DNA of 64,000 bases, from the NCBI GenBank assembly GCA_964016885.1, contig OZ024748.1, positions 59,334,001 to 59,398,000 of the forward strand, written 5' to 3'. The position numbers were made by a program, and so were the translations under genes. How positions within the stretch are numbered: position 1 is the first letter of the stretch; each line of letters begins with the position of its first letter. The notes below the pieces were generated by a model. It saw only the letters and a list, made by a program, of their open reading frames with translations. It made no database searches and was not told the DNA's origin. The stretch is from Eledone cirrhosa. Taxonomy: Eukaryota. Below are positions 16,369 through 64,000 of the stretch, one piece after another.

Positions 16369-16712
16369 TCATTTCGGAGATGCTCGCACTATACAAGTTT
16401 CTACTTTCAGAGAGCCTGCATTCCTGCGACTGCTACCACCACCACCACCGCCAGCGCTGCTGCTGCTGCTACTGCTGTTGTTGTTGTTGTTGCTACTCGC
16501 TCCCCTTTCCACTATAATCGGAGTGACGGAAGAGACGCTACCACCACCACTACCACCGCCAAAGGTGGCGATGGTGGCTGGAGCTGTTGATGAGGACACT
16601 GGAGCACTGGACAATGGCGTGGCAACAGTGGTCAGACCAGCTGCTACTACGTTCTCTCCGGACGAAATTCCAGTTGCTGTGATAATGATGTTTGGTGTCT
16701 CTCCAACAGGGA
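16369..16712 (-). CDS. ATF2: ATF2-like terminal coding exon 10 ([15 protein letters not shown]...VRASPK*)
   Basis: Polypyrimidine tract plus cag|TC acceptor is phase-1 compatible; open to TGA at 16369-16371; low-complexity C-terminus. Confidence 0.75.
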
Positions 16713-31060: not shown

Positions 31061-31107
<47 letters not shown>

Positions 31108-33432
31108 TAAAATAACAGATTAAAGTTTAAGCAAAGAATCACTGTTTTCACTCTTAACGGGATCTTCTGAAACTAAAAATATCAATCTGTGAACGTAGAA
31201 GCAAATATTTCGAAAATCGTCTTCCTGTTTTCCTTCGGTTGACAACATTTTTCGAAATATTTACTTCTGTGTTCATAGATTGATTTTTTTAGTTTCAGAA
31301 GATCCCGTTAAGGGTGAAAGCAGCGATTCTTTGCTTAAACTTTGATCTGTTATTTTAATAAATATTTCCTCTAGGGTTCTTATATATTAGATATAGATTT
31401 ATCCTTATCGAGCCTTCTTTGGATTTTAGTCTTCACATTTATTAATATTACTGTATATATATATATAGTAATATAAATAAATATATAACAGAGGAGTTGT
31501 GGTAAGGAACCAGATGGATCATAACGCACCAGAGTACTCAATACTTAGGGTAGTAGAGTGGGTAATAGGAGAAAGTATGACCCCAACGGCAGACTTTAGT
31601 CCAGAAATAGCCGTCGAAACGGCTTGAGCTCTGCCGTCGGGGTCATACTTTCTCCTATATATATATATATGCATGAACCCATAACTTCTGATGGAGTTGT
31701 AGGGGTGCCATAGTGACATATGGTATTTATTGAGCATTTTAAAGACTGGCAGAGGTCATCTCTCTCTAGGTCTGAACTTAGCAAATTTCTTTCAGAGAGA
31801 GAGACAGAACGAGCGAAAGACAGTCAGGGACGTCATTACATTGCCATCATTACAATGCCATCATTAAGCATTATCATTACATCATTATCATTACATTTGC
31901 TATCATTACATTTGCTATCATTAAATTGCTATCATTACATTTCCTATCTTTACATTGCTATCATTCCATTGCCATCATTACATTGCTATTATTTTAACTT
32001 TATAATGTTCTTTTCAACACTGTTGTATAAATATTAAAGATAAATGAAGGCTCTTGGTATGAGACTAGACTATGTGTCTGTCTGTGTGAGTTTGAGTGTA
32101 GGTGTGTCAGTGAGTGTCTGTGTTTGTTGGAGTGTGTCAGTGTGTATTGGAGTGTGTTGGAGTCAGTGTATGTGTGTGTCACAGTCCATGTGTCGGTGTC
32201 TGTGTGTCAGTGTGTGTGGGCCAGTGAGTCAGTGTATGAGCCAGTGTGTATGTATCGGAGTGTGTGAGCCAGTGTGTGCTAGCATGTGTAGATCAGTGTA
32301 CAGGCCAGTGTGTGTGTCTCTGTGTCGGAGATTGTACCAGTGTGTGTGTGTGTGTGTCGGAGTGTGTGTCACTGTGTGTCTGTGTGTGTCACTGTGTGTC
32401 AATGTGTGTGACCCAGTGTGTGTCTCTGTGACGGAGATTGTGCCAGTGTGTGTGTCGGAGTGTGTGTCACTGTATGTCACTGTGTCTGACCCCATCAGAA
32501 GACATGTAAAAACTTACCTAAAAATAAATTGTTTGGTGTTCTATTGTTGCTGCCAGAGTTTAAGGTTAAACACATCTCATGTTTCTTCAAGTGTACAGTC
32601 AAGTGATCTTCATTGGTAAATCGCTGACAAACAAATAATACACATTTTATATAGAAATATATATATATATACCTGCGTGTATATATATACAGATATATAC
32701 ACATACATTGGTATTTTTATATAGACATTTATACAGATAGATAGATATATATATGTAGAGAGAGATAGAGAGAGAGACAAACACACACACTCAGATATAC
32801 ATGCACACATAGCTATAATGTTCATACACACACACAAATATGTAAACGTTTACACATACATGTATACACACACATACACAGATATATAGAGAGAGATGAG
32901 AGAGAAAACAAAATATATATATTTATATATTTATTAAAATAACAGATTAAAGTTTAAACTAAGAATCGCTGCTTTCACCCTTAACGGTTCTTATATATTT
33001 TATATATATTTATCCTTATCAAGCCCTCTTATCAAGTCCTGCTCGTATAGGACTGACTGGCGGGTTTTCTATGGCTGGATGCCCTTCCTAACACCAACCA
33101 CGTTTACAGTGTGGACTGGGAGGCTTTTACCGTGTTACCTACACGGCCACATTACAGCATGGACTGTGTGTTTTTTTTTGTCATGACCTCATTTGTTTCG
33201 GACTGGATGTTGTGGTACCAACATAACTTCACATTTAAGGGGGTGGTGTGGATGGGATGGGGGTAGTGGGACGGGGGTGTATTTTGTTAGAGGTGCCTAC
33301 TGACTGTAGGTTTCGCTTTGTACTTAGGCAAGGCGGGTCTTCTGTAATACTGTGTAGCGCCAAAGATCTCGGTCCAGTGTCATTGTCTTGGAGAGGTGTG
33401 TGTGAGGTCAGAATTTATATATATATATATAT

Positions 33433-34326: not shown

Positions 34327-37018
34327 TATATCATATATCATATATGTGTATGCATATGTATGTATGTATCTGTATGTATGTAACACCTATGTACACAATT
34401 GAAAATATCATTCACTGAAGCTACAAAGACTTCCTTTGGTGACCTTTCCAGAAATGAAACAATAGAGCAAAGAACTGACCAATACACAATGGTCAGTTAA
34501 CTGTTAAGGCAGGAGCGGGATAATTATAGAGTCTGGTATAATAGGAAAGTGTCTACTGACCGAGGTGGACAGTAACAATGAGTGGAACAGTACATTGTCA
34601 TCATCTTGAGACAGTAGTGTCTTGAGCTGGTACAGAAATACCTTCTGGACATAAGGTGGTAGTTGGGGGGACGAGGGGGGGGGACAATGAGGGAGGAAGA
34701 GGGGAAGGAGAAGAGAAAGAGAAGGAGGGCTGGGGATTGATAAGCCAAACAAAGGAGCCCTCTCTGTGGTTGTTTGTCTTATTAGAAATAGCAGCTAAAT
34801 CTCACTCAAACCGGAAGTACCTTCTAGACACAAGATGGTGGAGGGAAAGGACATTGAGGGGAAGGAGGGCTGGGGTTGACAAGCCAGACAAAGGAGCCCT
34901 CTCTATGGTTGTTTGTCCTGTTAGAAATAGTAGCCAAATCTCACTCAAATTACAATATAAAGGTGGATATAGAAACACCTTCTGGACACAAAGAGATAAA
35001 GGACAGAGTAAGGAAAGAAGGAGGTGGGGTGACAAGCTAAACAAAGAAACCCTTTCTGTGGTTGCTTAACCTATTAGAAATAGTAACCAAATTTCACTCA
35101 AACTATAGTCTTGAGATGGTACAGACTATTTTCTGAACACAAGAGGAAGAAAGTACAGAAAGGATTGACAAGCCAAACCAAGGAGCCCTATCTGTAGCTG
35201 CTTGTCCTAGTAGAAATAGCAGCCAAACCTCACTCAAACTACAGATGGTATAGATATAACTCTGAATACAAGGAGAAGGAGGATGGAAAAAGGGAGGAGC
35301 TATGCAGATATTGCAGGATATACAACTGTGGATTTGATAAGTCAAACAAAGGAGCAGTTTGAAAGCCTTTTTTCCCTGCTAAAGCTGGGATTAGCCTTAG
35401 GAGTCTTAGGTCAGGCTTCTACATGTCCTATCCTCTGCACCCCATTCCTATCACCTCCTCCATCAGGTTTCACCAAGTCTATCTTAGTCTTCCTCTACTT
35501 CCTTCTACATTTATTTCCATCAGTCCTCTCACCCAGTCACTTTCATTCTTAACACATTCATCATGGCTCAACTCCCCTCACACAGTCACTTTCACCTTTC
35601 CTCAACACATGTCCCAGCCCTCTCACTCCATTTCTCTTTACAATGTTCATCACTGGCTCTATTCCTCTCACCCAGTCACTTTCATCTTTCCTCAACAAAT
35701 GACCAAGTCATCTTGTCACAACATTCATCACTGGCTCTATTCCTCTCACCCAGTCACTTTCATCTTTCCTCAACAGATGACCAAGTCATCTTGTCACAAC
35801 ATTCATCACTGGCTCTATTCCTCTCACCCAGTCACTTTCATCTTTCCTCAACAAATGACCAAGTCATCTTGTCACAACATTCATCACTGGCTCTATTCCT
35901 CTCACCCAGTCACTTTCATCTTTCCTCAACAGATGACCAAGTCATCTTGTCACAACATTCATCACTGGCTCTATTCCTCTCACCCAGTCACTTTCATCTT
36001 TCCTCAACAGATGACCAAGTCATCTTGTCACAACATTCATCACTGGCTCTATTCCTCTCACCCAGTCACTTTCATCTTTCCTCAACAGATGACCAAGTCA
36101 TCTTGTCACAACATTCATCACTGGCTCTATTCCTCTCACCCAGTCACTTTCATCTTTCCTCAAAAAATGACCAAGTCATCTTGTCACAACATTCATCACT
36201 GGCTCTATTCCTCTCACCCAGTCACTTTCATCTTTCCTCAACAAATGACCAAGTCATCTTGTCACAACATTCATCACTGGCTCTATTCCTCTCACCCAGT
36301 CACTTTCATCTTTCCTCAACAGATGACCAAGTCATCTTGTCACAACATTCATCACTGGCTCTATTCCTCTCACCCAGTCACTTTCATCTTTCCTCAACAA
36401 ATGACCAAGTCATCTTGTCACAACATTCATCACTGGCTCTATTCCTCTCACCCAGTCACTTTCATCTTTCCTCAACAAATGACCAAGTCATCTTGTCACA
36501 ACATTCATCACTGGCTCTATTCCTCTCACCCAGTCACTTTCATCTTTCCTCAACAGATGACCAAGTCATCTTGTCACAACATTCATCACTGGCTCTATTC
36601 CTCTCACCCAGTCACTTTCATCTTTCCTCAACAAATGACCAAGTCATCTTGTCACAACATTCATCACTGGCTCTATTCCTCTCACCCAGTCACTTTCATC
36701 TTTCCTCAACAGATGACCAAGTCATCTTGTCACAACATTCATCACTGGCTCTATTCCTCTCACCCAGTCACTTTCATCTTTCCTCAACACATGACCAAGC
36801 CATCTTGTCACAACATTCATCACTGGTTCTATTCCCCAAGATGTTATTTTTTTTTGTTTAAATTTCATCATTGGTGAATTCTAAAGATTTACACACAAAT
36901 ATTAATTAACAAATAAATAATAAGATCAACACATGTATAAACACACGCACTGAGGTTTACTTACCATCCCACATCCTGGAGATGAACATACAAAAGGTTT
37001 TTCATCTTCACTCATCAT
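16369..37018 (-). CDS. ATF2: ATF2/ATF7/CREB5-family bZIP transcription factor, 10 coding exons: 36965-37018, 32518-32623, 28823-28956, 27671-28101, 26153-26402, 22013-22236, 19811-19879, 19277-19373, 18016-18133, 16369-16712 (1827 nt, 608 aa)
   Basis: Manual splicing gives [35 protein letters not shown] (C2H2), [33 protein letters not shown], and [72 protein letters not shown] (bZIP). All introns are GT-AG with matching phases. An invertebrate gene of this family cannot be assigned specifically to ATF2, ATF7 or CREB5. Confidence 0.93.
16755..16962 (-). mobile_element. tRNA-derived SINE, full length, in ATF2 intron 9
   Basis: Full family consensus with A and B boxes. Confidence 0.85.
17779..17986. 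mobile_element. piggyBac-type MITE (208 bp)
   Basis: TTAA|CCCTTTAGCATTTA...TAAATGCTAAAGGG|TTAA. Confidence 0.8.
18016..18133 (-). CDS. ATF2: ATF2-like exon 9 ([39 protein letters not shown])
   Basis: Leucine zipper end with the LLAHKDCP signature; cag|AGT and G|gtaagt. Confidence 0.94.
19277..19373 (-). CDS. ATF2: ATF2-like exon 8 ([32 protein letters not shown])
   Basis: bZIP basic region and zipper; cag|G and CAG|gtgtgt. Confidence 0.94.
19811..19879 (-). CDS. ATF2: ATF2-like exon 7, basic region start ([23 protein letters not shown])
   Basis: Canonical ATF2 basic region; tag|C and AG|gtacgt. Confidence 0.93.
19945..21700. repeat. 81-bp minisatellite, about 21.5 copies, in ATF2 intron 6
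   Basis: Unit gactccaaataaaatatgactgcacatggtagacattggctccataagccatggagaaggcaacccatgaaggagagcagg. Confidence 0.97.
22013..22236 (-). CDS. ATF2: ATF2-like exon 6 ([10 protein letters not shown]...GGSGAV)
   Basis: AKQ|KLKAAL resembles ATF2 AKMRLKAAL; cag|AAA acceptor; AT|gttagt donor is phase-compatible with exon 7. Confidence 0.82.
22587..23563 (+). mobile_element. Non-autonomous Helitron/Helentron-like element in (TA)n
   Basis: Starts tactagc..acccagcgttgcttgggt hairpin; ends with (CA)n and tttatatatacagat; internal about 175-bp repeats at about 23012, 23187 and 23360. Confidence 0.55.
23630..23663 (-). ncRNA. Minimal type I hammerhead-like motif in ATF2 intron 5
   Basis: AUAC-CUGAUGA-UGUCACU-GAAA-U-GAUC-AUA-GUAU, then AAUAAA; palindromic AUGAUCAU; stem II vestigial. 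Confidence 0.6.
24076..24225. repeat. Near-perfect 150-bp palindrome next to (TA)n
   Basis: Centred on tgt|aca at 24150/24151; arms complementary with few mismatches. Confidence 0.85.
24340..24519. repeat. Inverted repeat with 72-bp arms next to (TA)n
   Basis: Arms 24340-24411/24448-24519; spacer contains aatgaatactaa twice. Confidence 0.85.
24597..24671 (-). ncRNA. Type I hammerhead ribozyme motif in ATF2 intron 5
   Basis: GCUGC-CUGAUGA-17-bp stemII-GAAA-U-AUGU-AUC-ACAGC, followed by AAUAAA. Confidence 0.68.
25047..25385 (+). mobile_element. Second tRNA-derived SINE family with (GAT)n tail
   Basis: A-box TGGTTCAGTGG, B-box GAGTTCAATTC, ccttgagcaaggcactt domain, tail ggaaaagcggacgtaaaatgatgatg; related minus copies at about 9545-9800, 27290-27440 and 28530-28778. 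Confidence 0.78.
25835..26012 (+). mobile_element. tRNA-derived SINE, same family
   Basis: gggcggtggattggcagtatcggtaaagggtcagac..gagttcaaat..gttaactttgcctttcatcc. Confidence 0.85.
26153..26402 (-). CDS. ATF2: ATF2-like exon 5 (LSPNII...[17 protein letters not shown]...SLAKQ)
   Basis: [15 protein letters not shown] resembles the ATF2/7 central motif LHLPNGQTMPVAIPA; cag|G and CAG|gtaatt. Confidence 0.9.
27671..28101 (-). CDS. ATF2: ATF2-like exon 4 ([16 protein letters not shown]...polyQ...TAAP)
   Basis: Open frame 27667-28068 extended to tag|GCT acceptor; AT|gtaagt donor; phase 0 to 2. Confidence 0.85.
28823..28956 (-). CDS. ATF2: ATF2-like exon 3 ([45 protein letters not shown])
   Basis: Conserved TPTP phospho-acceptor transactivation segment; cag|AT and GAT|gtaagt; not in the ORF track because it is short. 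Confidence 0.94.
31100..31453 (+). mobile_element. Fold-back element between (TA)n tracts
   Basis: About 117-bp arms 31100-31216/31249-31365 plus tail; a deleted related copy lies at about 32925-33030. Confidence 0.7.
31495..31657 (-). mobile_element. Short fold-back element, same family as 51274-51455 and the tail at 3250-3315
   Basis: 28-bp arms 31566-31593/31630-31657; tail is the reverse complement of the actaccctaagtatcgagtactctggtg family. Confidence 0.65.
32518..32623 (-). CDS. ATF2: ATF2-like exon 2 ([35 protein letters not shown])
   Basis: Second half of the zinc finger plus JNK D-motif-like KKHEMCLTL; cag|CGA and G|gtaagt; phase 0 to 1. Confidence 0.93.
33469..33790 (+). mobile_element. 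Fold-back Penelope-like pLTR remnant with hammerhead
   Basis: Arms 33469-33526/33643-33700 plus tail to 33790; flanked by (TA)n; same family as 45497-45759. Confidence 0.72.
33505..33575 (-). ncRNA. Type I hammerhead ribozyme motif in ATF2 intron 1
   Basis: UAUUUUAU-CUGAUGA-stemII-GAAA-U-GCGC-AUA-AUAGAAUA; 8-bp stem I, intact core, palindromic AUGCGCAU. Confidence 0.75.
34735..35245 (+). repeat. Four tandem copies of a dispersed repeat (gacaagccaaacaaaggagccc..tagaaatagcagccaaatctcactcaaa)
   Basis: Copies near 34740, 34880, 35030 and 35168; the core also occurs near 4030 and 18230. Confidence 0.7.
35440..35625 (-). mobile_element. Degenerate RTE-clade LINE 3' ORF remnant
   Basis: Minus-strand translation includes [14 protein letters not shown] and [12 protein letters not shown], resembling the RTE C-terminal GHVLR..RGRPRKTW motif. 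Confidence 0.5.
35644..36835. repeat. 78-bp minisatellite, about 15 copies, in ATF2 intron 1
   Basis: Unit cattcatcactggctctattcctctcacccagtcactttcatctttcctcaacaaatgaccaagtcatcttgtcacaa; nearly invariant. Confidence 0.97.
36965..37018 (-). CDS. ATF2: ATF2-like coding exon 1 ([18 protein letters not shown]); exon probably begins at 37076
   Basis: First half of the C2H2 finger; in-frame TAG directly before ATG; donor ATG|gtaagt; acceptor ttttatatccattcag ending at 37077. Confidence 0.9.
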
Positions 37019-39759
37019 CTAACACACATGGGTATGTGAAAGATGAGAGCAAATTGACAGCTACACTATGGATGACCTGAATGGATATAAAAGAAAACAA
37101 ACACCTTTACTGTATGTATTATATGGACATGTAACTCCTGATGGAGTCATAGGGGTGTTGTACTGATATATGGTGTTTATTGAGCATTATAACCCTCGTG
37201 GAGCACCCATCCTTTCTCCAGGTCTGAACATAGGTAATTTCTTATACAAAAGAGAGACAGAGAGGAGACAGAAATGTTCATAAGTGTTAGGGTTTCGTTC
37301 CAGCTCCCCTAAATAGGAGACCCAGTTTATCACAGGTAACATTCCTAAAAAAAACCTAGTACAAATTTCTGACAGCTAACTAAATTGAAGTTATAACTCT
37401 TCCCCCAACCTTCCCCCAACAAACTCTGGTTCTATGAAACAAAACCAACCATTTTATAAGGTCCCTATTTAAATTAAAATCCTCCAACATAATTGTTAAG
37501 TCTCTATGGCTAAACCTGTCAGTGTGTTTGGCTGTTAACCAAAAGGTTGGTGGTTCAAGCTCACCCACAGACGATGGTATATCTTTTCAATGGTAGTGCC
37601 GGTAAATCTCTCAACAATCTTCATTAATTAATTGAAAGAGAATGTATTTCATTAGAAATACATTCATTAAATGTTTAATGTTCAGCCTAAATACACCACC
37701 TTTCGGTTGTTGTTTTAATTGCAGTTATCAATAAATATATAATACACCACAAAATTTGAAGTAAAAAATACAAGAGGAGTTTATAGTCCATCAAGCTTAT
37801 AGTTCACTCAATTATTTCACCTGTCTAAAAAGACATCTTTAACCCTTTGGCATTTAAACTGGCTATATCCAGCCAGAATTCTCTCACCTCTTTCTGTTCA
37901 AACCGGCAATAACTGGATGCTCAATGGATGCTCAAGATTGAACCACTTCTTTAGCCTGTGGTTCAATTTTATAAAGATTTCTCTTTAACTTGTGAAGACT
38001 CAAATGATGAAAATCAAAGATCAACACATAATAATAATAATAACAATAATGATTTCATTCATTGGCCACAAGGGCCGACATGTAGGGGACAACACAAAGC
38101 CATGGACAGTGCGGGGGGGGGGGGGGTACAATAAAATTGAGAATGGTTTCTAATTTAGGCACAAGGCCAACAATTTGGGGAGAGGGGAAAATCGATTAAT
38201 TCGACCCCAGTGTATTACTAGTGCTTTATTTTATCAACCCCGTAATAAAGCACCAGTAATGCACATAACAATAATAATAATAATAATAAACAAAATAATA
38301 TTGATAATAACAATATTAATATATTTGCAATAATAAAAGCAGAACCCCTTTTTTTTAAAAAACAATTTCTCCACTTGCTGCTGACTGCCAATTTATTCTT
38401 CACCAAAAGTGATATAATTTACAATCTTCTTTCTTAAATGCCAAAAAGAACAGAAGGGTAAGTAGAAACACTTCATCAGAATATGCCAAAAGTTTTCTCA
38501 GTCTAATCTGATGGCATTTATCCAAAGAAATATCTACTGGCACGGTCAATTTCCTTCGCAAATGTTCCCCATAAAAAAAAATCAAAAATCAAAAAAGAAA
38601 ATCATAATTAAAAAAAAATAATAAACAAATAAATAAATAAACAAATAAATAAATAAATTTCTTTTAAGACTTACTTCAGTTCTAGAAACTGAACCGATAA
38701 TTTCAATGAGTGGTCAGGTTTCTAATTAACCCCTTCTTTAATCCTCTCTCGTATCTCCTTCCTCCTCAATGCATCTGATACACTTCTAATGTTAATTACA
38801 GAGATGTGGGAGGGGGGGGGGGGGGGCCATAAAAATCACCTCGTTAGCTTAATAACCAATTTCAAGCTAAGAAGATATATGATGTTTCTAAGCAACAGTT
38901 AGATATTTCAATTTCATCCCTTTACTTCCATCTTAAACTCTTGTCATGTTATGTTATTAATACTTACTAGACTTACCTAACTTGGCTACTTTTAACAATC
39001 ATACTTCTTAGCAATGTAACCCCTACTCCTTCTCTCTCCTTTCCCTCTCCATTCTCCCTCTCTCCCCCTCTTCTCTCCTTCTCTCTCCCTTTACTATTTT
39101 TGTTTGATAAACCTACAAATAGAACTGTAACCATCTCTTCATAATACCAAACCTTAATTATCCGATATACATAACAAATGACTGAGAAAGAGACAAGCCA
39201 GTAGCCGAAGTTTACGATCATCCGAGTCAACCAGAAGAACCATATCTCATGGTTTGGCCACACCATTCATCCACAGGGGACATCTATTGCCTACAGAGTA
39301 GCTAAGGGAAATTTCCTCCCCAAAAGAAACACAGGCAAGTCACTAAAGAGATGGTAAGTCAACCAGAAGAGCCATATCTGATGGTTTGGTATTTTATTTA
39401 TCATACCAGTAACACACTGGAGTTGATTTAATCAACTTTACCCTTCCCAAAAAATTGATGGCCTTGTGCCTAAATCAAAACAGTGAATTAATGATAATTG
39501 TTTATGCTATAAGCCCAAGGCTAGAACTTTGAGAAATGTTATTAGTCTATTAAATCAGCCCCAGTGCATAACTGGTACTTTATCTCATCAACCCCAGAAA
39601 GATGAAAGGTAAAGTTGACCTCAGCTGGATTTGAATTCAGAACATATAGAGCTAAAACTAAATACCACAAGGCACCTTGTCCGATGTCCTACCCATTCTG
39701 ACAATGTAAAACAATGTCACATAGAGAAACAAAATACAAACAAAAATTATTTTCCATAC

Positions 39760-39908
39760 CTTCAGGGGGTCTTGATGGAGTTGGGGAGCTTCATGAACAC
39801 CAAGCTCCCCGTGTTGAGCCAGATAGGTTAGTTTTCAGCTACATCGGGAGAGGTTACGACTAAAGAGAGTCTAGAGTGCATGGCACCAACAGAAGGCAAC
39901 TAATAACT
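39760..39908 (-). other. Candidate non-coding 5'UTR exon of the ATF2-like gene with uORFs
   Basis: Strong acceptor ttttctattttcag| and donor AAG|gtatgg around a unique, GC-richer 149-nt segment. Confidence 0.5.
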
Positions 39909-40046: not shown

Positions 40047-40231
40047 CAGGGTTCCCCAAACTTTTTCAAATGCGGAACCCTTTTTTGTCCAGAATCTTTT
40101 GAGATAACCCCAAAGTCTAATACTGTTATATGGTCGTAATAGAAATATACTCCTCTACCTTTATCCATGGAACCCCAGACACTCTTTTCTGGAACTCTTG
40201 GGTTCCGTGGAACCCACTATGGGAACCACTG
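40047..40231. mobile_element. hAT (Charlie-type) MITE
   Basis: TIRs cagggttcccca/tgggaaccactg; 8-bp flanks ctttaagg/gtctaagg (6/8). Confidence 0.75.
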
Positions 40232-41945: not shown

Positions 41946-44900
41946 AAGTCCACACTGTAAAGTGGTAGTTCTGGTGCCACAACAAAGAGCATAGTCCACC
42001 TTGTAAAGTGGTAGTTCTGGTGCCACAACAAAGAGCATAGTCCACACTGTAAGGTGGTAACTCTGGTACCACAACAAAGAGCATAGTCCACACTGTAAAG
42101 TGGTAGTTCTGGTGCCACAACAAAGAGCATAGTCCACACTGTAAGGTGGTAGTTCTGGTGCCACAACAAAGAGCATAGTCCACACTGTAAAGTGGTAGTT
42201 CTGGTGCCACAACAAAGAGCATAGTCCACACTGTAAAGTGGTAGTTCTGGTGCCACAACAAAGAGCATAGTCCATCCTGTAAAGTGGTAGTTCTGGTGCC
42301 ACAACAAAGAGCATAGTCCACACTGTAAGGTGGTAGTTCTGGTGCCACAACAAAGAGCATAGTCCATCCTGTAAAGTGGTAGTTCTGGTGCCACAACAAA
42401 GAGCATAGTCCACACTGTAAGGTGGTAACTCTGGTACCACAACAAAGAGCATAGACCACACTGTAAAGTGGTAGTTCTGGTGCCACAACAAAGAGCATAG
42501 TCCACACTGTAAAGTGGTAGTTCTGGTGCTACAACAAAGAGAATAGTCCACACTGTAAGGTGGTAGTTCTGGTGCTACAACAAAGAGCATAGTCCACACT
42601 GCAAAGTGGTAGTTCTGGTGCTACAACAAAGAGCATAGTCCACCCTGTAAGGTGGTAGTTCTGGTGCCACAACAAAGAGCATAGTCCACCTTGTAAGGTG
42701 GTAGTTCTGGTGCCACAACAAAGAGCATAGTCCACACTGTAAAGTGGTAGTTCTGGTGCCACAACAAAGAGCATAGTCCACCCTGTAAGGTGGTAGTTCT
42801 GGTGCTACAACAAAGAGCATAGTCCACCTTGTAAGGTGGTAGTTCTGGTGCCACAACAAAGAGCATAGTCCACACTGTAAGGTGGTAGTTCTGGTACCAC
42901 AACAAAGAGCATAGTCCACACTGTAAGGTGGTAGTTCTGGTACCACAACAAAGAGCATAGTCCACACTGTAAGGTGGTAGTTCTGGTGCCACCAGAAAGA
43001 GCATAGTCCACACTGTAAGGTGGTAGTTCTGGTGCCACAACAAAGAGCATAGTCCACACTGTAAGGTGGTAGTTCTGGTGCCACAACAAAGAGCATAGTC
43101 CACACTGTAAGGTGGTAGTTCTGGTGCCACAACAAAGAGCATAGTCCACACTGTAAAGTGGTAGTTCTGGTGCCACAACAAAGAGCATAGTCCACCCTGT
43201 AAGGTGGTAGTTCTGGTGCTACAACAAAGAGTATAGTCCACCTTGTAAGGTGGTAGTTCTGGTGCCACAACAAAGAGCATAGTCCACACTGTAAGGTGGT
43301 AGTTCTGGTACCACAACAAAGAGCATAGTCCACACTGTAAGGTGGTAGTTCTGGTACCACAACAAAGAGCATAGTCCACACTGTAAGGTGGTAGTTCTGG
43401 TGCCACCAGAAAGAGCATAGTCCACACTGTAAGGTGGTAGTTCTGGTGCCACAACAAAGAGCATAGTCCACACTGTAAAGTGGTAGTTCTGGTGCCACAA
43501 CAAAGAGCATAGTCCACCCTGTAAGGTGGTAGTTCTGGTGCCACAACAAAGAGCATAGTCCACACTGTAAGGTGGTAGTTCTGGTGCCACAACAAAGAGC
43601 ATAGTCCACACTGTAAGGTGGTAGTTCTGGTGCCACAACAAAGAGCATAGTCCACACTGTAAAGTGGTAGTTCTGGTGCCACAACAAAGAGCATAGTCCA
43701 CCTTGTAAAGTGGTAGTTCTGGTGCCACAACAAAGAGCATAGTCCACACTGTAAGGTGGTAACTCTGGTACCACAACAAAGAGCATAGTCCACACTGTAA
43801 AGTGGTAGTTCTGGTGCCACAACAAAGAGCATAGTCCACACTGTAAGGTGGTAGTTCTGGTGCCACAACAAAGAGCATAGTCCACACTGTAAAGTGGTAG
43901 TTCTGGTGCCACAACAAAGAGCATAGTCCACACTGTAAAGTGGTAGTTCTGGTGCCACAACAAAGAGCATAGTCCACACTGTAAAGTGGTAGTTCTGGTG
44001 CCACAACAAAGAGCATAGTCCACACTGTAAAGTCGTAGTTCTGGTGCCACAAGAAAGAGCATAGTCCACACTGTAAAGTGGTAGTTCTGGTGCCACAACA
44101 AAGAGCATAGTTCACACTGTAAGGTGGTAGTTCTGGTGCCACAACAAAGAGCATAGTCCACCTTGTAAGGTGGTAGTTCTGGTACCACAACAAAGAGCAT
44201 AGTCCACCCTGTAAAGTGGTAGTTCTGGTGCCACAACAAAGAGCATAGTCCACACTGTAAATTGGTAGTTCTGGTACCACAACAAAGAGCAGAGTCCACA
44301 CTGTAAAGTGGTAGTTCTGGTGCCACAACAAAGAGCATAGTCCACACTGTAAGGTGGTAGTTCTGGTACCATAACAAAGAGCATAGTCCACACTGTAAAG
44401 TGGTAGTTCTGGTACCACAAGAAAGAGCATAGTCCACACTGTAAAGTCGTAGTTCTGGTGCCACAAGAAAGAGCATAGTCCACACTGTAAAGTGGTAGTT
44501 CTGGTGCCACAACAAAGAGCATAGTCCACACTGTAAGGTGGTAGTTCTGGTGCCACAACAAAGAGCATAGTCCACCTTGTAAGGTGGTAGTTCTGGTACT
44601 ACAACAAAGAGCATAGTCCACCCTGTAAGCTAATAGTGCTGGTACCATGATAAAAATCACCCAGTCAACCCTGTAATATGGTAATGGTGATGTCACAATA
44701 AAATCACCCAGTCCACCCTGTAATGAGGTAGTACTGGTACCATGATAAAAATCACCCAGTCAACCCTGTAATATGGTAATGGTGATGTCACAATAAAATC
44801 ACCCAGTCCACCCTGTAATGCTGTAATACTGGTGCCACAATAAAACACCCAGTCCTTCCTATAATGAGGTAATACTGGTTCCACAATAAAAAAAAAACAC

Positions 44901-45498: not shown

Positions 45499-45759
45499 GG
45501 AGGTGAGTTTTATTGTAGTACAATAAAGCAATGCAGATATCGGATAAGAAGCACTCTACAGTTTGTGGGACTGGAGTATGCATAATATAAGATCAAAAGA
45601 TGGTTAAAGGAGTTCAATATATTTTATTATGCGCATTTCAGAAACAAACATCATCAATTAAGATTTTTTATAAAAAATCTTAATTGATGATGTTTGTTTC
45701 TGAAATGCGCATAATAAAATATATTGAACTCCTTTAACCATCTTTTGATCTTATATTAT
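45497..45759 (-). mobile_element. Fold-back element with a perfect 178-bp spacerless palindrome
   Basis: 45582-45759 is self-complementary about 45670/45671; tail 45497-45581; (TA)n on both sides. Confidence 0.8.
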
Positions 45760-46012
45760 ATATATATATATATATATATATTGTATGTATGTGAGGTGTA
45801 TATGCATGTATTTATAATGGTTGTTTGTGTGTATATATATATATATATGATGTATGTATGTTGTGTATATATGATTATATATAAATGCATGCATGTATTT
45901 ATAATAGTATATATATATATATATGTATACATATGATGTATGTATGTTGTGTATATATGATTATGTATATATGCATGCATGTATTCATAATAGTTGTTTA
46001 TATGTGAATGTG

Positions 46013-51273: not shown

Positions 51274-51455
51274 GATTCAAGACCCCCCCCCCCCGACGGC
51301 TGAGCTACGGCCGTTTCGACAGCTAGGTCCAAACTAGCTGTCGAAACGGCCAGAGCTCAGCCGTCGGGGGTCTTGAATCACTTCATACTACCCCAAGTAT
51401 CGAGTACTCTGGTGGGTTATGGTCCACCTGGTATTTTACCACATGCTATCTGATT
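51274..51455 (+). mobile_element. Fold-back element with the 3' half of a hammerhead
   Basis: Arms 51274-51326/51334-51379; GAAAC-GGCC-GUA on the minus strand of the left arm; tail then (TA)n. Confidence 0.68.
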
Positions 51456-52454: not shown

Positions 52455-53790
52455 GGTGGTGGTGGCAGTAGGGGGTGAGGTTTTACAAGGTGGTGGTGGT
52501 GGTAGTGGCAGCAAAAGATGTCATAGTATAGTGGTAGGGCACCAGTGGTGGTGGTGGTGGTGGTAGCATGATGGTGGTGTGGGATGGTGGCGGTGTGGTA
52601 TGATGGTGGTGAGGTATGGTGGTGGTGGTGATGGTGTTGACGGTAGTGGCAGTGATGGTGGTGATGATGGTGGTGGTGGTGGTGATGGTGTTGATGGTAG
52701 TGGCAGTGATGGTGGTGATGATGGTGGTGGTGGTGGTGATGGTGTTGATGGTAGTGGCAGTGATGGTGGTGATGATGGTGGTGATGGTGGTGATGATGAT
52801 GGTAGTGGTGATGATGGTAGTGGTGATGATGGTGGTGGTGGTGGTGATGGTGGTGGTGGTGGTGGTGGTGATGGTGTTGATGGTAGTGGTGGTGGCAGTG
52901 ATGGTGTTGATGGTAGTGGTGATGATGGTGGTGGTGGTGGTGATGGTGGTGGTGGTGGTGGTGATGGTGGTGGTGATGGTGTTGACGGTAGTGGCAGTGA
53001 TGGTGGTGATGATGGTGGTGGTGGTGGTGGTGATGGTGGTGGTGGTGATGGTGGTGGTGTTGACGGTAGTGGCATTGATGGTGGTGATGATGGTAGTGGT
53101 GGTGGCAGTGATGGTGTTGATGGTAGTGGCGATGATGGTGGTGGTGGTGGTGATGGTGGTGGTGGTGGTGGTGGTGGTGATGGTGGTGGTGGTGGTGGTG
53201 GTGATGGTGTTGATGGTAGTGGTGATGGTGGTGGTGATGATGGTGATGGTGGGATGAGTATTGTTAGGACAAAAGACAGACTTAAATCAATGACAATATT
53301 CATATTAGTTTTGTTTTGCTTTGTTAGACAAGTGTTCATTGTGCTATTGACATGGTGGCAGTGGTGGTGGTGGTGGTGGTGGTGGTGGTGGTGGCAGCGG
53401 TGGTGGTGGCGGTGGTGGCGGTGGTGGCGGTGGTGGTGGTGGTGGTGGTGGTGGTAGTGGTGGTAATAGTAGTTGTGATGCTGGTGGTGGTGGTGGTGGT
53501 GACAGTAGTTGTGATGCTGGTGGTGGTGGTGGTAGTAGTAGTTGTGATGCTGGTGGTGGTGGTGACACTAGTTGTGATGCTGGTGATGGTGGTGGTGACA
53601 GTAGTTGTGATGCTGGTGGTGGTGGTGGTGACACTAGTTGTGATGCTGGTGATGGTGGTGGTGACAGTAGTTGTGATGCTGGTGGTGGTGGTTGTGACAG
53701 TAGTTGTGATGCTGGTGGTGGTGGTGACAGTAGTTGTGATGCTGGTGGTGGTGGTGACAGTAGTTGTGATGCTGCTGGTGGTGGTGGTCA
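52455..53790. repeat. (GGT/GAT)n trinucleotide tract with higher-order units
   Basis: Direct inspection; similar tracts at 56810-57170 and 62700-63520. Confidence 0.93.
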
Positions 53791-54146: not shown

Positions 54147-54363
54147 CAGTGGTCTCCAAACCTTTTTTATACCAAGGACCATGCAAATATATATATATAT
54201 AACTTGGCATTAGGAAGAGCATTCAGCCATAGAAAACCAGCCAGAAACTTTCCTATATGAGCAAGACACAGTCGCCTGACCCAAATTGCCTCTAAATGGG
54301 ACAAACCTGTCTAACCCATGCTAGCGTGGAAGATAGACATTAATCGACGACGATGATGATGAT

Positions 54364-54398
<35 letters not shown>

Positions 54399-54965
54399 AT
54401 TATGCTGGTACCACAAAACATCCAGCCCACACTGTAAAGTGATTGTGTTGGTGTCATGACAAAAAGCACACAGCCCACACTCTAAAGTGGACATGTAAAA
54501 GACACGGCAAAAAACACCCAGCAAACACTGTCAATGTGGTTGGCATTAAGAAGGACATCCAGCCATAGAAAACCAGCCAGAAATACTCTTATATGAACGA
54601 GACATGGTCACCCACCCCAACTTGCCACTAAATGGGACAAATCCGTCTAACCCTTGCTAGCGTGGAAGATAAACGTTAATCGATGATGATGGACTGGCTT
54701 TATGCCGGACAATCTTTCCACAAACTAGTAGCTGCAAATAAAGCTAGACATAAAATATACATTAATTATAAAATGTACTTAAAGTTATGGTAGATAGTAT
54801 TGAGTAGACAAATATTGAATATTTCAACAAATCTTTTTAAATTAAAGTCCAATATTCAATTTATCTATTATATGATTTTAAACAAATTAAATATTTCTTT
54901 GCAGCCTGGTAGCAAATGATCCACAGACCTGTACTGGTTCGCAGTCCAGTGGTTGGGGATCTCTG
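54147..54965. mobile_element. hAT MITE with nested SINE 3' fragments
   Basis: Perfect 8-bp TSD gtttagat on both sides; TIRs cagtggtctccaaac/gttggggatctctg. Confidence 0.82.
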
Positions 54966-55390
54966 GTTTAGATGGTGTATACAAGCCAACCTCCCATTTT
55001 GACATCAATTTTTGGGGTCACATATTCCTCAGCTTATGTTCAAGTATATATGGCATGAATAATTTCTCTGTATTTCTAATTATCTATATATCTATTTTAT
55101 ACTATGCTATCATTATCATCATCATCGTCATCATTCTTACGTCCACGTTTCCATGCTAACATGGGTTCGGCGGGATGATTTGAACTGAAACAATGCTCTG
55201 CAGCCAAAGGCCCTTCATGGCACAAAGCCTTTTAGTCACCTCTTATGACATGAAGCGCAGGGATTTGGTGGACTTATTCTAATCACCAGGATACATATGG
55301 TCAATAAGTATAAATACCGCTTTGAATAAATTTTTAAATTTAGGTACAAATGGCTCTAAAATACTTTTATTTGTTCTAGATCAGGTAGCA

Positions 55391-56507
55391 GTGGGCCACA
55401 TAGGATGTGGCTCATCATAAGGTGGGCCACATAGGATGTGGCTCACAATTAGGTGGGCCACATAAAATGTGGCTCATCATAAGGTGGGCCACATAGGATG
55501 TGGCTCACAATTAGGTGGGCCACATAAAATGTGGCTCATCATAAAGTGGGCCACATAGGATGTGGCTCACAATTAGGTGGGCCACATAGGATGTGACTCA
55601 TCATAAGGTGAGCCACATAGGATGTGACTCATCATAAGGTGAGCCACATAGGATGTGACTCATCATAAGGCAAGCCACATAGGATGTGACTCATCATAAG
55701 GTGAGCCACATAGGATGTGACTCATCATAAGGCAAGCCACATAGGATGTGACTCATCATAAGGTGATCCGCAGGGAATGTGACTCATCATAAGGTGAGCC
55801 ACATAGGATGTGACTCATCATAAGGTGATCCGCAGGGAATGTGACTCATCATAAGGTGAGCCGCAGGGAATGTGACTCATCATAAGGTGAGCCACATAGG
55901 ATGTGACTCATCATAAGGTGATCCGCAGGGAATGTGACTCATCATAAGGTGAGCCGCAGGGGATGTGGCTCATCATAAGGTGAGCCGCAGGGAATGTGAC
56001 TCATCATAAGGTGAGCCGCAGGGAATGTGACTCATCATAAGGTGAGCCGCAGGGAATGTGACTCATCATAAGGTGAGCCGCAGGGAATGTGACTCATCAT
56101 AAGGTGAGCCACATAGGATGTGACTCATCATAAGGTGATCCGCAGGGAATGTGACTCATCATAAGGTGAGCCGCAGGGGATGTGGCTCATCATAAGGTGA
56201 GCCGCAGGGAATGTGACTCATCATAAGGTGATCCGCAGGGAATGTGACTCATCATAAGGTGAGCCGCAGGGGATGTGGCTCATCATAAGGTGAGCCGCAG
56301 GGGATGTGGCTCATCATAAGGTGAGCCGCAGGGGATGTGGCTCATCATAAGGTGAGCCGCAGGGGAAGTGGCTCATCATAAGGTGAGCCGCAGGGAATGT
56401 GGCTCATCATAAGGTGAGCCGCAGGGGATGTGGCTCATCATAAGGTGAGCCGCAGGGGATGTGGCTCATCATAAGGTGAGCCGCAGGGGATGTGGCTCAT
56501 CATAAGG
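55391..56507. repeat. 31-bp internally palindromic minisatellite, about 36 copies, containing 20 TGACTCA sites
   Basis: Unit aggtgagcc(a/g)ca(t/g)(a/g)g(g/a)atgtg(a/g)ctcatcata. Confidence 0.97.
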
Positions 56508-56816
56508 CAGGCTGCACTACTAAAAATTTCAAGGCAATTTTGAAATTAGGTGTGCCACTCAGAAAACCAAATGGGCCACATACAGCTCGCGGGCCGCAGT
56601 TTGCCCATGACTGATCTAAAGTATACCAGGTGCAATCAAAGATGTTCTGCCATTTAGTTTTTTGTAGACACAGTATATCTAAGACTATATTATCTAATGT
56701 GAACTTCTTAAAAAAAAAAAAAATAGTAAGGTCCAATGAGCGAGATTTGGCAGCTACTTTTAACAGGCTGAGCAATGATATAGAGGCTCTTATCATTGGC
56801 TTGATAATGATAATGG

Positions 56817-56857
<41 letters not shown>

Positions 56858-57980
56858 TGGTGAATTAGATGATGATGATGATATTGTGGTGATGGAGAAA
56901 ATAATAGTGTGATGATGATGATGATGATGATATATATGGTGAAATGAGATGGTGGTGATGATAGTGTGGTGATGGAGAAGATAATAGTGTGATGAGGAGA
57001 AGGAGGAGGATGACGATGATGAGAAAAATGATGATGATCATCATGATCATGATGAGGAGGAAAAAGAAGATGATGATATTGTGGTGATAGAGAAGATAAT
57101 AATATGAAGATGATGGTGATAAGGATGATGTTGATGATGATGATGATGATGATGATGTTGATAGTGTAGTGATATTGTGACAACAGTGATACTGAAGAAA
57201 CACTTTTGAAATTAATTTGCTTTTTTCTTCCTTACAGAAACACAATATATGGTAATATAATCTTTTGGTATTATATAAATCAAATCAAAAGTTGGCACTT
57301 AGCAGTTACCAATATAATAAATATTAGCAACTGTGCACATGGAAAAGCAGACATAAACGACAAACAAATGCAATCATCTCTTCTCCTCATCAGCCACCCT
57401 CTGCAAATGCAATTTTGTGAGTTAAAGTGAGATTGTATCATTATAGCCAGGTTGTACAGTGCCTTTAAATATTTAGGGGGGAGGGGGGCAACATAGTTAC
57501 CAAAGAGAAAATAAGAAGTAAGTATAAGTGAATACAAATGAGTATTTCTACTTAGACAACACTGAAAATAGGGTAAATCACCACCAACACCACCACCACC
57601 AAGTGGTGCCAAACTGTATCAGCCATTGCCTTTCCCTTAGACAACATCGGTGATGTGGAAAGAAGAGACTGGTATGCTTGGGTAACTACTGGTCTTCCAC
57701 AAGACATCCCTGCCCGGATTTGTACCTCGGAGGTGAACTTTCTAGGTGCAAATCCCATGATCATTCGTGACTGAAGGGGTTTTTTACATTTATCCTTTAC
57801 CCTTTATATATATATATATATATTTACATATAGTTCACCATACCGAGAACAAATGTTTCACCTTATGCAAATCTTCATATATATATATCATCATCATTCG
57901 TCGACTACTGTCGAGATGATGGATCTCACTCTCATGCCCCAGAATTCCCTGTCCCCAGGTCCTGTCTACTGGATATATAT

Positions 57981-58304
57981 ATATTGAAAGAGTGAAGAAT
58001 AACATGGTCAACGGTACAAAAAAGGGTTTTATTTACAGTATTAACAATTGTTTCACTGATTAAGTTGTCTAAAAATTGCTGAACACTTGAAGTTGTGTCA
58101 CTCAATTTTAAATATGTTAGCTTACCCAGATCATCAGAAAGTCCTTCCTGATGATCTGGGTAAGCTAACGTATTTAAAATTGAGTGGCACAGCTTCAAGT
58201 GTTCAGCAATTTTTAGACAACTTAATCAGTGAAACAATTGTTAATACTGTAAATAAAACCCTTTTTTGTACCGTTGACCATGTTATTCTTCACTCTTTCA
58301 ATAT
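57981..58304. mobile_element. Fold-back element with 157-bp arms and hammerhead core
   Basis: Arms 57981-58137/58148-58304; CUGAUGA (58148) .. GAAA-C-AAUU-GUU (58231-58242); explains the mirror ORFs 57932-58198(-) and 58087-58320(+). Confidence 0.75.
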
Positions 58305-60371: not shown

Positions 60372-61205
60372 AAAGAGAAAGTTGCTTGGTAGTGTAATGT
60401 TGTAGTTGTGTTGGAGAAAGTTGCTTGGTAAGGTAATATTGTAGTTGTGTTGGAGAAAGTTGCTTGGTAATGTAATGTTGTAGTTGTGTTGGAGAAAGTT
60501 GCTTGGTAATATTGTAGTTGTGTTGGAGAAAGTTGCTTGGTAAGGTAATATTGTAGTTGTGTTGGAGAAAGTTGCTTGGTAAGGTAATATTGTAGTTGTG
60601 TTGGAGAAAGTTGCTTGGTAAGGTAATATTGTAGTTGTGTTGGAGAAAGTTGCTTGGTAGTGTAATGTTGTAGTTGTGTTGGAGAAAGTTGCTTGGTAGT
60701 GTAATGTTGTAGTTGTGTTGGAGAAAGTTGCTTGGTAATATTGTAGTTGTGTTGGAGAAAGTTGCTTGGTAATATTGTAGTTGTGTTGGAGAAAGTTGCT
60801 TGGTAAGGTAATATTGTAGTTGTGTTGGAGAAAGTTGCTTGGTAAGGTAATATTGTAGTTGTGTTGGAGAAAGTTGCTTGGTAGGGTAATATTGTAGTTG
60901 TGTTGGAGAAAGTTGCTTGGTAGGGTAATATTATAGTTATGTTATGGAGAGAAAGTTGCTTGGTAGGGTAATATTGTAGTTGTGTTGGAGAAAGTTGCTT
61001 GGTAGGGTAATATTGTAGTTATGTTATGGAGAGAAAGTTGCTTGGTAGGGTAATATTGTAGTTGTGTTGGAGAAAGTTGCTTGGTAGGGTAATATTGAAG
61101 TTGTGTTGGAGAAAGTTGCTTGGTAGGGTAATATTGTAGTTGTGTTGGAGAAAGTTGCTTGGCAGGGTAATATTGTAGTTATATTATGGAGAGAAAGTTG
61201 CTTGG
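60372..61205. repeat. 39-bp minisatellite with 34-bp and longer variants, about 21 copies
   Basis: Unit agttgcttggtaaggtaatattgtagttgtgttggagaa. Confidence 0.95.
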
Positions 61206-61219
61206 TGTAATATTGGAGG

Positions 61220-61258
<39 letters not shown>

Positions 61259-63267
61259 CACATGTCAATTTTATGTAAAAACATGTGAAGATAGCAACAA
61301 CTACAACACAAAATCACCTGACAGGATGGTTTAACCTCACCTACCTATCTTTATATATTTCTAGTGTGTGGAGGGAGAACTAGTACATCAATAAAACACC
61401 TGACTATTAGGCAATGGGTGTCAGGAAGAGGAGATTTATATTTCCTATTTTTTTTTCTTGATTTATATGAACGAATGAATTATCTCAGTGTCCATTTTCC
61501 CTGCTAGCAAGGCTTGGTCAAGCCATCATAGACCAAGTCAGTACTTGGCTAGAGCCACCAACACTAAGTGGGATACTATTATCAACATCGTTTAATGCCC
61601 TTTTCTCCATGCTTGTATGGGTTGGATGGGTCTTTTCCAGCACAGCATCTCTCAACCATCCTTCGTCATCTCCTTTGTGAGTCTCAGTGATTTGAGGTCA
61701 GCTCAAAACATGATAACCTGTCTAACCCGTACAAGCATGGAAATAGACATTAAACTGTGATGATGATGATGAAATGTTAGTCAAGAAATACCATATTTGC
61801 CGGCCTATTAAATGCACTTTTTTTTCCCAAAAAAGAAATATGAAAAAAAAAAGAACCTTCCCTGCATCCATTATGTCCATACCACTGATAGGAGGCTGAA
61901 GAGAGGGTGAGGACAATCATGGTTTTAAACATTTTAGTTTGTATTACTATTAGTATTACCAATACAGTAATATAATATAATTTATATAAGCAAAATGATG
62001 TCAAACTTATATGAGTTTCAGAGAAAACAACAAAATCATTTTTAGTAAATTTATGAGTAAATTCTTTTTTCTGAAAAATGTCTTTGTAAAACCATGGGGC
62101 ATCATATTTGGCATCAAATAGGCCAAAAATATGGTAATTAATCACTTTAATAAGTCCCTTAATATTCTTCATTAAATTAATTGGAATATAGTGTATTTCA
62201 TCAGTTAGCTCATCTAACCCATGCTTACATGGAAAATAGACATTAGATGATGTTGATGATGATGATTATATGTAAAGTTACTACGTTAGTAATAAAATAA
62301 TCAATCATTTTAATGTCCCTTAAAATTCTTCATTAATCAATTAATTAAAATAGAGAATATCTCATTAAACATATGGCCAAGAAAAGGTTAACACCAACAC
62401 CTGGACCTTTGGTGCCGTTAGCAGGGTCCACTCTCTTGCATGTATTTAGGCCAAATCTCTGGATTAAGGATACCTTCCCTACTCCAAACAGTGACAGGGA
62501 CTCTGAAAATGCCTATAGGTACTGACCTTCCCTCCCTATACAATAGCAAAAAAAAAGACAGTCAATGCATTTAATCAAAACTTTTATCTTAGAGGCAAAT
62601 ATTTTGCAAACTGTTACAATTATGGCTATCACAGGTACACCCCCTACTCCCCTCTCTCAAGCTAACAGTTTGGAATAACATTTTTTTTTCAGGGGAGGTG
62701 GGGGATGGTGACAGTGGTGGTGGCGGTGGTGGCAGCAATGGTAGTGATGATAAATGGAAGGTAACAGTGGTGATGGTGGTAATGGTGGTGATAGAAACAG
62801 CAGTTATAATGGTAGTGGTAATGGAGACAGTGGTGGTATTGATAGTGGTGAAAGCAATGATAGTGATGATAAATGGAAGGTAGCAGTGGTGAATGTGATG
62901 GTGGTGCTGGTAGTGGTGACAGAAGCAGCAATTGTAATGGTGGTGGTGGTGGAGACAGCAGTGGTGGTGTTGGAGGCGATGATGATGATGACCAGTACTG
63001 TGTTAGTAAAGACAATATTTCAAAGAGTTACATTAATTCTCACCAGGTCTTCCAGATCCTCCAGTATTTCGATCTTTTTTTTTTCTTTTCCTTCCCTAAA
63101 TTGCAATTAAGACCCCCACCCCACCACCCACTCAACCCTTCCCCCTTCGAAATTAATTGGATAGAACCAGTAAATCACTTTAATTTATAACCAGTTTCAC
63201 TTGATAAACATGATGGTGATGATGGTGGTGGTTGTAATGATGGTGACGCTGGTGGTGGTTGTAATGA

Positions 63268-63298
<31 letters not shown>

Positions 63299-64000
63299 TG
63301 TAGTCGTGATGGTGGTGGTGGTGATGGTGGTGATAGTAGTGGTGATGGTGGTGGTAGTAGTGGTGATGGTGGTGTTGGTGGTGGTTGTAATAATGATGAT
63401 GGTGGTGGTAGTGGTTGTAATGATGATGATGGTGGTGGTGATGGTGGTTGTAATGATGGTGGTGGTGCTTGTGATGATGATGGTGGTGGTGCTTGTAATG
63501 ATGATGATGTTGATGATGAGTGAACAAGCTATGTCAGCTGTTACATCTTCAAAACTCACTCTCTCTCACACACACACACACACATTTATCAATATCACAT
63601 ATGCTCCACATTCTCCTTATATGACACTCCACCAATCCAATGTCTGTCCATCCCCCCCCCCCCCAAAAAAAAACATGCATGCATATATACAGAGATCTAG
63701 TCAGCCATATTGACCCAATATTTTATCGATCCCTATTTGTCAAACCTCTATGTTATGGTACAAGACACACACACATCAGCAGCAGCATTTTTATATCAAA
63801 TTTTCCATGCTGGCATGAGATGGGACCTCTTGAGGCAATGTTTTACAGCCCTTCCCAAAACCAACCCTTTTAGTAACCTCTTACGAACACACGGGGATAT
63901 GGTGTACCTATTCTGAATACACATGATACACCCAACACACACATACACACAATATGCCTCCACAGTTTCCATCTAGTAAATTTCACTTGAAAGGCCTCTG

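Follow-up and report, generated by a model that had tools for sequence, protein, structure and literature searches.

Tandem arrays inside mobile elements are exemplified by the tandem-repeat-containing MITEs of molluscs, such as DTC84 of the bivalve Donax trunculus, a non-autonomous inverted-repeat element of the pearl family which carries a short tandem array (PMC3879986). As described there, variants are ordered along the array and each unit contains a palindrome that has been proposed to drive changes in length; the cores are 156 bp long and number at most five, a microsatellite is attached, the target duplication is AA and the element is present in high copy number (PMC3879986). The Charlie-related hAT transposons, such as hAT-HT1N1 and hAT-HT3N1 of Anolis, have CAG termini and the target consensus NTCTAGAN (PMC3014272, PMC2836564). 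Tandem repeats made up of clustered transcription factor motifs, AP-1 motifs among them, have already been described in human, where examples are the IFNB1 MRE with 45 PU.1 sites and the MORC3-restricted repeats with SPI, AP-1, and SP/KLF motifs (PMC13373173), and the VNTR motif polymorphisms reported to affect expression include single-base unit variants which potentially toggle a binding site (PMC11701250). In the partial coverage of the octopus literature that was searched, by title and abstract, for minisatellites, for ATF2 with AP-1, and for tandem repeats, enhancers, and ATAC-seq, nothing was found on the locus reported here.

This locus is a 31-bp minisatellite of Eledone cirrhosa, analyzed in a window of 64 kb, by which we mean the whole stretch of DNA under study (64,000 nucleotides). 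The array shares with DTC84 its location inside an apparently non-autonomous element, the ordering of variants and the palindrome in each unit, a resemblance which is one of analogy only: the unit is 31 bp and not 156 bp, there are 36 copies, the ends are hAT-like and the putative target is an 8-bp site of the TCTAGA type. No microsatellite was found within 55382-56613, and the defining features of pearl/DTC84 are absent from that interval. Like the Charlie-related hAT elements the putative host element has CAG termini, its putative target-site copies resemble their target consensus, and its right end is 14/16 identical to the terminal inverted repeat (TIR) published for Anolis hAT-HT1 (PMC3014272). 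Its terminal repeat on the left has decayed or been lost (6/16), the target copies agree with each other at 5/8, and about 90% of its length is minisatellite; we take this as a likeness and not as family membership. The human motif-cluster repeats are matched in having more than 15 motifs of one factor near a gene (here 20 TREs), and the VNTR polymorphisms in the single-base variation of the unit. The IFNB1 MRE differs by its demonstrated binding, its enhancer activity and its mouse counterpart (PMC13373173), whereas the present array is a regulatory candidate and lies in an invertebrate host with gene-body methylation.

The minisatellite and its putative host element

The array, its AP-1 block and the parts of the element around it are as follows.

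55391 to 56507, no strand assigned: 31-bp minisatellite of 36 units and 12 unit types, without indels, the unit an imperfect palindrome (by repeat finding and unit splitting)
55593 to 56252, plus strand: AP-1 block of 22 units, 20 with GTGACTCAT and two (units 19 and 26) with GTGGCTCAT
55374 to 55381, plus strand: left putative target-site copy TTCTAGAT, an exact fit to the hAT consensus
55382 to 55390, plus strand: left end of the hAT-like relic, degenerate and beginning CAG
56508 to 56613, minus strand: non-array body of the relic, 106 bp
56598 to 56613, minus strand: right terminal repeat
56614 to 56621, plus strand: right putative target-site copy ATCTAAAG, one mismatch to the consensus

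Tandem Repeats Finder reported the array at 55403-56507 with a period of 31, 35.6 copies, 91% matches and 0% indels, a head-to-tail arrangement which falls within the range of minisatellites (units of about 10-100 bp in arrays of 0.1-20 kb). Scanning the window for GTGACTCAT returned 20 exact matches between 55593 and 56252, on the plus strand only, and none outside the array block, and the spacing between the 36 GTG[A/G]CTCA sites is 31 in 35 of 35 intervals; the earlier note had described 20 perfect AP-1 sites in 31-bp register over this interval, and the scan confirms it. The core of these sites is the heptamer TGACTCA, which agrees with the same note's identification of the motif as the TRE and is given as its canonical form in Table 1 of PMC5775265. 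The remaining 63 kb of the window contain four further TREs and no CRE (TGACGTCA). At the AP-1 position 20 units carry A and 16 carry G, the G units being 1-6, 19, 26, and 29-36 in a variant map that represents a single haplotype. The earlier description of G units flanking a block of A units thus holds for 14 of the 16, units 19 and 26 lying inside the block. Units 16-20 recur as a block at 23-27, dimer repeats are present as well, and the differences between units grow with their separation, being 2.6 for units at lag 1 and 6.6 for those at lag 30. Dimer repeats, a five-unit duplication and lag-dependent divergence are what slippage and unequal exchange usually leave behind, and the 20 sites are one motif that has been copied, not the product of 20 events.

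Several other identities for the array were considered and rejected. No open reading frame of at least 80 amino acids crosses it, which tells against a coding array. An Rfam scan of the 64 kb for structured RNA gave no match at the array. A 24-nt stretch of the unit has no matches in GTDB genomes, which tells against a bacterial or archaeal origin, and an ARE/MARE reading fails because the unit runs on as TGACTCATC, whereas ARE/MARE requires TGACnnnGC.

The array appears to be bracketed by the ends of a transposon. Read inward, both ends start with CAG (at the right end the sequence is CTG followed by ATCTAAAG), and the left end matches little beyond these three bases. The right end is the only match to the hAT-HT1 TIR in the window at up to three mismatches; a two-mismatch match anywhere in 64 kb was produced by 11 of 100 shuffles, while the real match lies only 106 bp from the array. 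A strict end pattern, picked after the sequence had been seen, has three matches per 64 kb, two of which bracket the array, and a looser one has 13 matches, giving a rough and post hoc joint chance of 1e-5 that both ends fall so close. It should be noted that complementarity between the terminal repeats, expected over about 14-16 bp, amounts to 6/16, and for this reason the element is classed as a hAT-like relic and not as a family member. The two 8-bp target-site copies show zero and one mismatch to the published consensus (PMC3014272, PMC2836564) and are 5/8 identical to each other, so that with ends of such low similarity it is chiefly the right end that carries the transposon call. The rest of the window yielded no further copy of either the unit or the element body. 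On these sequence features the host of the array is likely a decayed hAT-like non-autonomous DNA transposon. Two comparable elements were observed elsewhere in the window: a hAT-like relic at 54147-54965, with an 8/8 target duplication and ends matching at 11/16, stops about 420 bp to the left of the host element, and a hAT-like miniature element of 185 bp at 40047-40231 has target copies matching at 6/8 and ends at 11/16.

Position of the array relative to the ATF2/7-like gene

The gene on the far side of the interval, and the splice features predicted upstream of its start codon, are the following.

16369 to 37018, minus strand: ATF2/7-like gene of 10 coding exons (zinc finger, JNK/p38-target region, bZIP), ATG at 37018
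37019 to 37096, minus strand: splice acceptor predicted 58 nt before the ATG, with the exon starting at 37076, score 9.8
39760 to 39908, minus strand: candidate non-coding internal 5'-UTR exon, acceptor rank 38/1295 and donor rank 45/1486

The ten exons, which run from the ATG to a stop codon near 16370, are colinear with those of the Argonauta hians protein "ATF-2-like", the only named one among three matches, at 54-100% identity per exon, which places the DNA in an octopod. The product combines an N-terminal zinc finger and DQTPTP MAPK-target region with a C-terminal bZIP, the arrangement of ATF2/ATF7, and the best PDB matches for both signature regions are ATF-2 (E 2.9e-08 and E 6.5e-09). 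The assignment to a bZIP gene of the AP-1 family, ATF2, which had been made previously, is therefore borne out by the colinear exons and the PDB matches, as is the distance of about 18.5 kb between array and start codon: the array edge is 18,373 bp away from the ATG and the first site 18,575 bp. Coding exon 4 (27670-28101) contains a poly-Q tract; its counterpart in Argonauta, where the Q/P/S-rich stretch is expanded, is longer by about 58 residues. The sole Rfam match in the window is a tRNA-like piece at 37500-37573 (RF00005, 35.4 bits), which precedes the ATG by about 480 bp and is likely the head of a tRNA-derived SINE or a pseudogene.

The predicted acceptor ranks eighth among 1295 AG sites in 37-64 kb, with a score inside the training range of 7.4-15.1, a scale trained on the nine known acceptors of this same gene and hence on a small set. 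The strength of this acceptor indicates that the exon containing the ATG is probably internal and that at least one non-coding exon lies upstream. The candidate exon at 39760-39908 falls outside the top 12 of the 140 candidates scored and is thus only suggestive; it contains upstream ATGs, including one that opens a short frame stopping just before the donor. The CpG observed/expected ratio, computed after repeat masking and with 95% block bootstrap ranges, was 0.29 (0.24-0.35) in 37-64 kb, 0.40 (0.31-0.48) across the coding span and 0.61 (0.43-0.79) in 1-8 kb. A promoter search for a CpG-rich peak in 37-64 kb found none, the best 500-bp segment having a ratio of 0.72 with seven CpGs. CpG depletion is an indirect sign of methylation. 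In O. bimaculoides methylated CpGs are reported to concentrate in introns and exons, while methylation is also found at the promoters of one class of genes and is relatively high in satellites (PMC9476566). Given the acceptor before the ATG and the CpG depletion, the array probably lies in a long, historically methylated 5'-UTR intron and not upstream of the promoter. The earlier reading had overlooked both the hAT-like ends and this probable intronic position. No other coding gene was detected in 37-64 kb: when frames of at least 50 amino acids were searched against Pfam, with repeat-masked and low-complexity frames removed beforehand, 86 of 87 had no match and one gave a below-cutoff low-complexity match, a search which short exons would escape.

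Unit palindrome and spread of the AP-1 variant

Each unit is a near-palindrome with arms of 10 bp and a 3-bp spacer. Complementary arm positions number 9 of 10 in the left-hand G units, 7-8 in the right-hand G units and 6-9 in the A units, and in the four of 36 units that were folded the energies were -9.9 and -8.6 kcal/mol (z -4.6 and -4.7) for two G units and -5.5 and -3.3 kcal/mol for two A units. The G-to-A change that creates the AP-1 site therefore weakens the palindrome of the unit. Since the G pairs with a C of the opposite arm, it is likely, on this symmetry, to be the ancestral allele. The claim that one G-to-A change arose and then spread through the center of the array gains from this polarity, and loses its simplest form on the evidence of the unit backgrounds: A and G each occur on both of them (four-gamete counts 5/9/11/10 over 35 units), so that a single origin would need recombination within units. 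The commonest right-hand G unit has two differences from an A unit and 6-7 from left-hand G units. Recurrence or reversion of the change may be an alternative to one mutation with recombination.

The right subterminal region of the host element contains GGGCCACATA at 56573-56582, which is identical at 10/10 bp to units 1-7. This shared segment suggests that the unit is an amplified subterminal piece of the element, as we infer from the 10 bp common to both.

The clustering of the AP-1 variant was compared with that of other variant columns, in this array and in the other large and homogeneous minisatellites of the window, of which there are four (91-98% matches).

19944 to 21710: 81-bp unit, stopping 65 bp short of the basic-region exon's acceptor
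35646 to 36835: 78-bp unit, beginning 130 bp after the first coding donor
41947 to 44647: 46-bp unit
60375 to 61206: 39-bp unit

Within the AP-1 array, clustering as strong as that of the AP-1 column was seen in four of the six remaining common variant columns (runs P <= 0.0006), and the spread of the AP-1 variant is therefore not special. None of nine common variant columns was clustered (P < 0.05) in the three other arrays tested, which indicates that the history of the AP-1 array differs from theirs.

The window is rich in further repeats. A fold-back at 57981-58304, 1.4 kb from the array, has arms of 161 nt which are 98% complementary, a spacer of 2 nt and TA-rich flanks; it is likely a young fold-back MITE or, less probably, an assembly inversion. 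Five more fold-backs were observed (97-639, 2654-2963, 31100-31365, 45576-45765, and ~51290-51370), with arms of 36-190 nt and ends that look unrelated, several of them sitting in (TA)n tracts. Long degenerate (GTG)n/(TGA)n tracts occupy 52545-53788, 56802-57162, and 63214-63491 and are accompanied by extreme local GC skew, which reaches 0.77 in 52-54 kb.

Interpretation of the AP-1 cluster

How surprising the cluster is depends on the null. Shuffles of the whole window produced GTGACTCAT 0.67 times on average and three times at most, but the copies depend on one another, which makes this null unsuitable, and a per-unit null was used instead. The five large minisatellites make up 11.9% of the window, and in these arrays 287 of the 8192 canonical 7-mers occur at least 10 times. 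The probability that at least one shuffled unit of the five arrays holds a TRE is 0.027, and for the AP-1 unit alone it is 0.004. The other four arrays each repeat, in most of their units, some motif of a panel of eight transcription factor motifs: CCAAT 21 times, the E-box 21 and 14 times, SOX 53 times and the IRF half-site 15 and 22 times. Extrapolating this single window to an assumed genome of 2.3-2.7 Gb gives about 1000 TRE-bearing arrays, and the chance that one of them lies near any AP-1-family gene is 0.10-0.34 if 4-10 such genes and spans of 64-100 kb are assumed. The coincidence of array and gene is uncommon per window yet expected in a genome scan, and the link to ATF2 which the earlier note had implied is left unsupported by a co-occurrence that is unremarkable by chance at these two figures. 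Helical phasing was likewise rejected as evidence. At 10.5 bp per turn the phase drifts by -17 degrees per unit and by -360 degrees over 21 intervals, and at 10.4 bp per turn by -145 degrees; with a total drift of 145-360 degrees the sites of the block do not share a common face, and the proposal that they do holds between neighboring units only. Among unit lengths of 20-100 bp, 12 of 81 fit whole helical turns equally closely.

We consider it quite probable that the locus is a neutral minisatellite of 36 units which expanded in a decayed hAT-like non-autonomous transposon, and that its AP-1 motifs are a by-product of one copied variant. In this scenario a small hAT-type element would have inserted at a TCTAGA-type site, probably in the 5'-UTR intron of ATF2, after which a palindromic 31-bp subterminal segment would have been duplicated and amplified by slippage and unequal exchange, with hairpins aiding the slippage. 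A G-to-A change would then have turned TGGCTCA into TGACTCA, and recombination would have shuffled the A onto two unit backgrounds. The resulting DNA has probably been gene-body methylated and the array is probably without a selected effect on ATF2, although on naked DNA one would expect Jun/Fos to bind the array. That the sites are high-quality TREs is a point against the neutral reading.

Among the competing explanations, the array might be a co-opted stress-inducible enhancer, at which Jun/Fos or Jun/ATF2 dimers, bound cooperatively to the 20 sites, would exert a feed-forward effect on ATF2 transcription, with the number of A units setting the output. To its credit are 20 canonical TREs within 660 bp and the lack, between array and ATF2, of any other recognizable coding gene; in the published record, TREs mediate the auto- and cross-regulation of AP-1 genes (PMC5775265), human tandem repeats include AP-1-like motif clusters that are predicted to drive accessibility, and motif-cluster repeats can be genuine enhancers (PMC13373173). 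We nevertheless regard such an enhancer as unlikely, because chance occurrence suffices, phasing is absent across the block and the context is depleted in CpG. ATF2 moreover prefers the CRE, which the window lacks. The published base rate also weighs against it, being about 5% for SPI clusters: about 50 are accessible and bound among the roughly 1000 SPI clusters that exceed 15 motifs in human (PMC13373173). By the same human analogy, the array could at times be occupied by AP-1 and yet be biologically silent, or be actively repressed, a repeat-silencing pathway of the MORC/DAXX type preventing its action; this would fit both the site quality, which predicts binding in vitro, and the JUN-motif clusters reported among the MORC3-restricted human repeats (PMC13373173), and we hold it to be improbable. 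The boldest version is decidedly doubtful: a dead hAT transposon in the 5' region of ATF2 would have spawned the palindromic minisatellite, and one substitution, present 20 times over, would have become an AP-1 enhancer and so completed a feed-forward loop from JNK through Jun to ATF2, the ratio of A to G units tuning its strength between individuals.

Two explanations of another kind remain to be weighed. That the copy number was inflated by an artifact of assembly or consensus is suggested by the general proneness of tandem arrays to assembly error and by the recurrence of units 16-20 at 23-27, and is very unlikely in view of the 12 distinct unit types, the graded left-to-right divergence, the absence of indels and a length of 1.1 kb, which long reads readily span. 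A role as a decoy that titrates AP-1, raised in the earlier note, has the local density of sites in its favor and is implausible, to the point of being almost dismissible, because the density of TREs in the rest of the window (four in 63 kb, or about one per 16 kb) implies of the order of 10^5 sites in a genome of 2-3 Gb, among which 20 would make up about 0.01%.

If the array is neutral, as is likely, it offers a worked example of how copying makes motif clusters in repeat-rich cephalopod genomes, with steps that can be followed from the end of a transposon through a minisatellite to a transcription factor motif, and it shows why the null for such clusters must be set per unit and not per site. 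If it is functional, the A and G units and the number of units would provide a natural dose series for one mutation amplified into an enhancer of a stress-response transcription factor, and, were the enhancer reading true, cephalopod minisatellites would be a fast-evolving source of homotypic enhancers.
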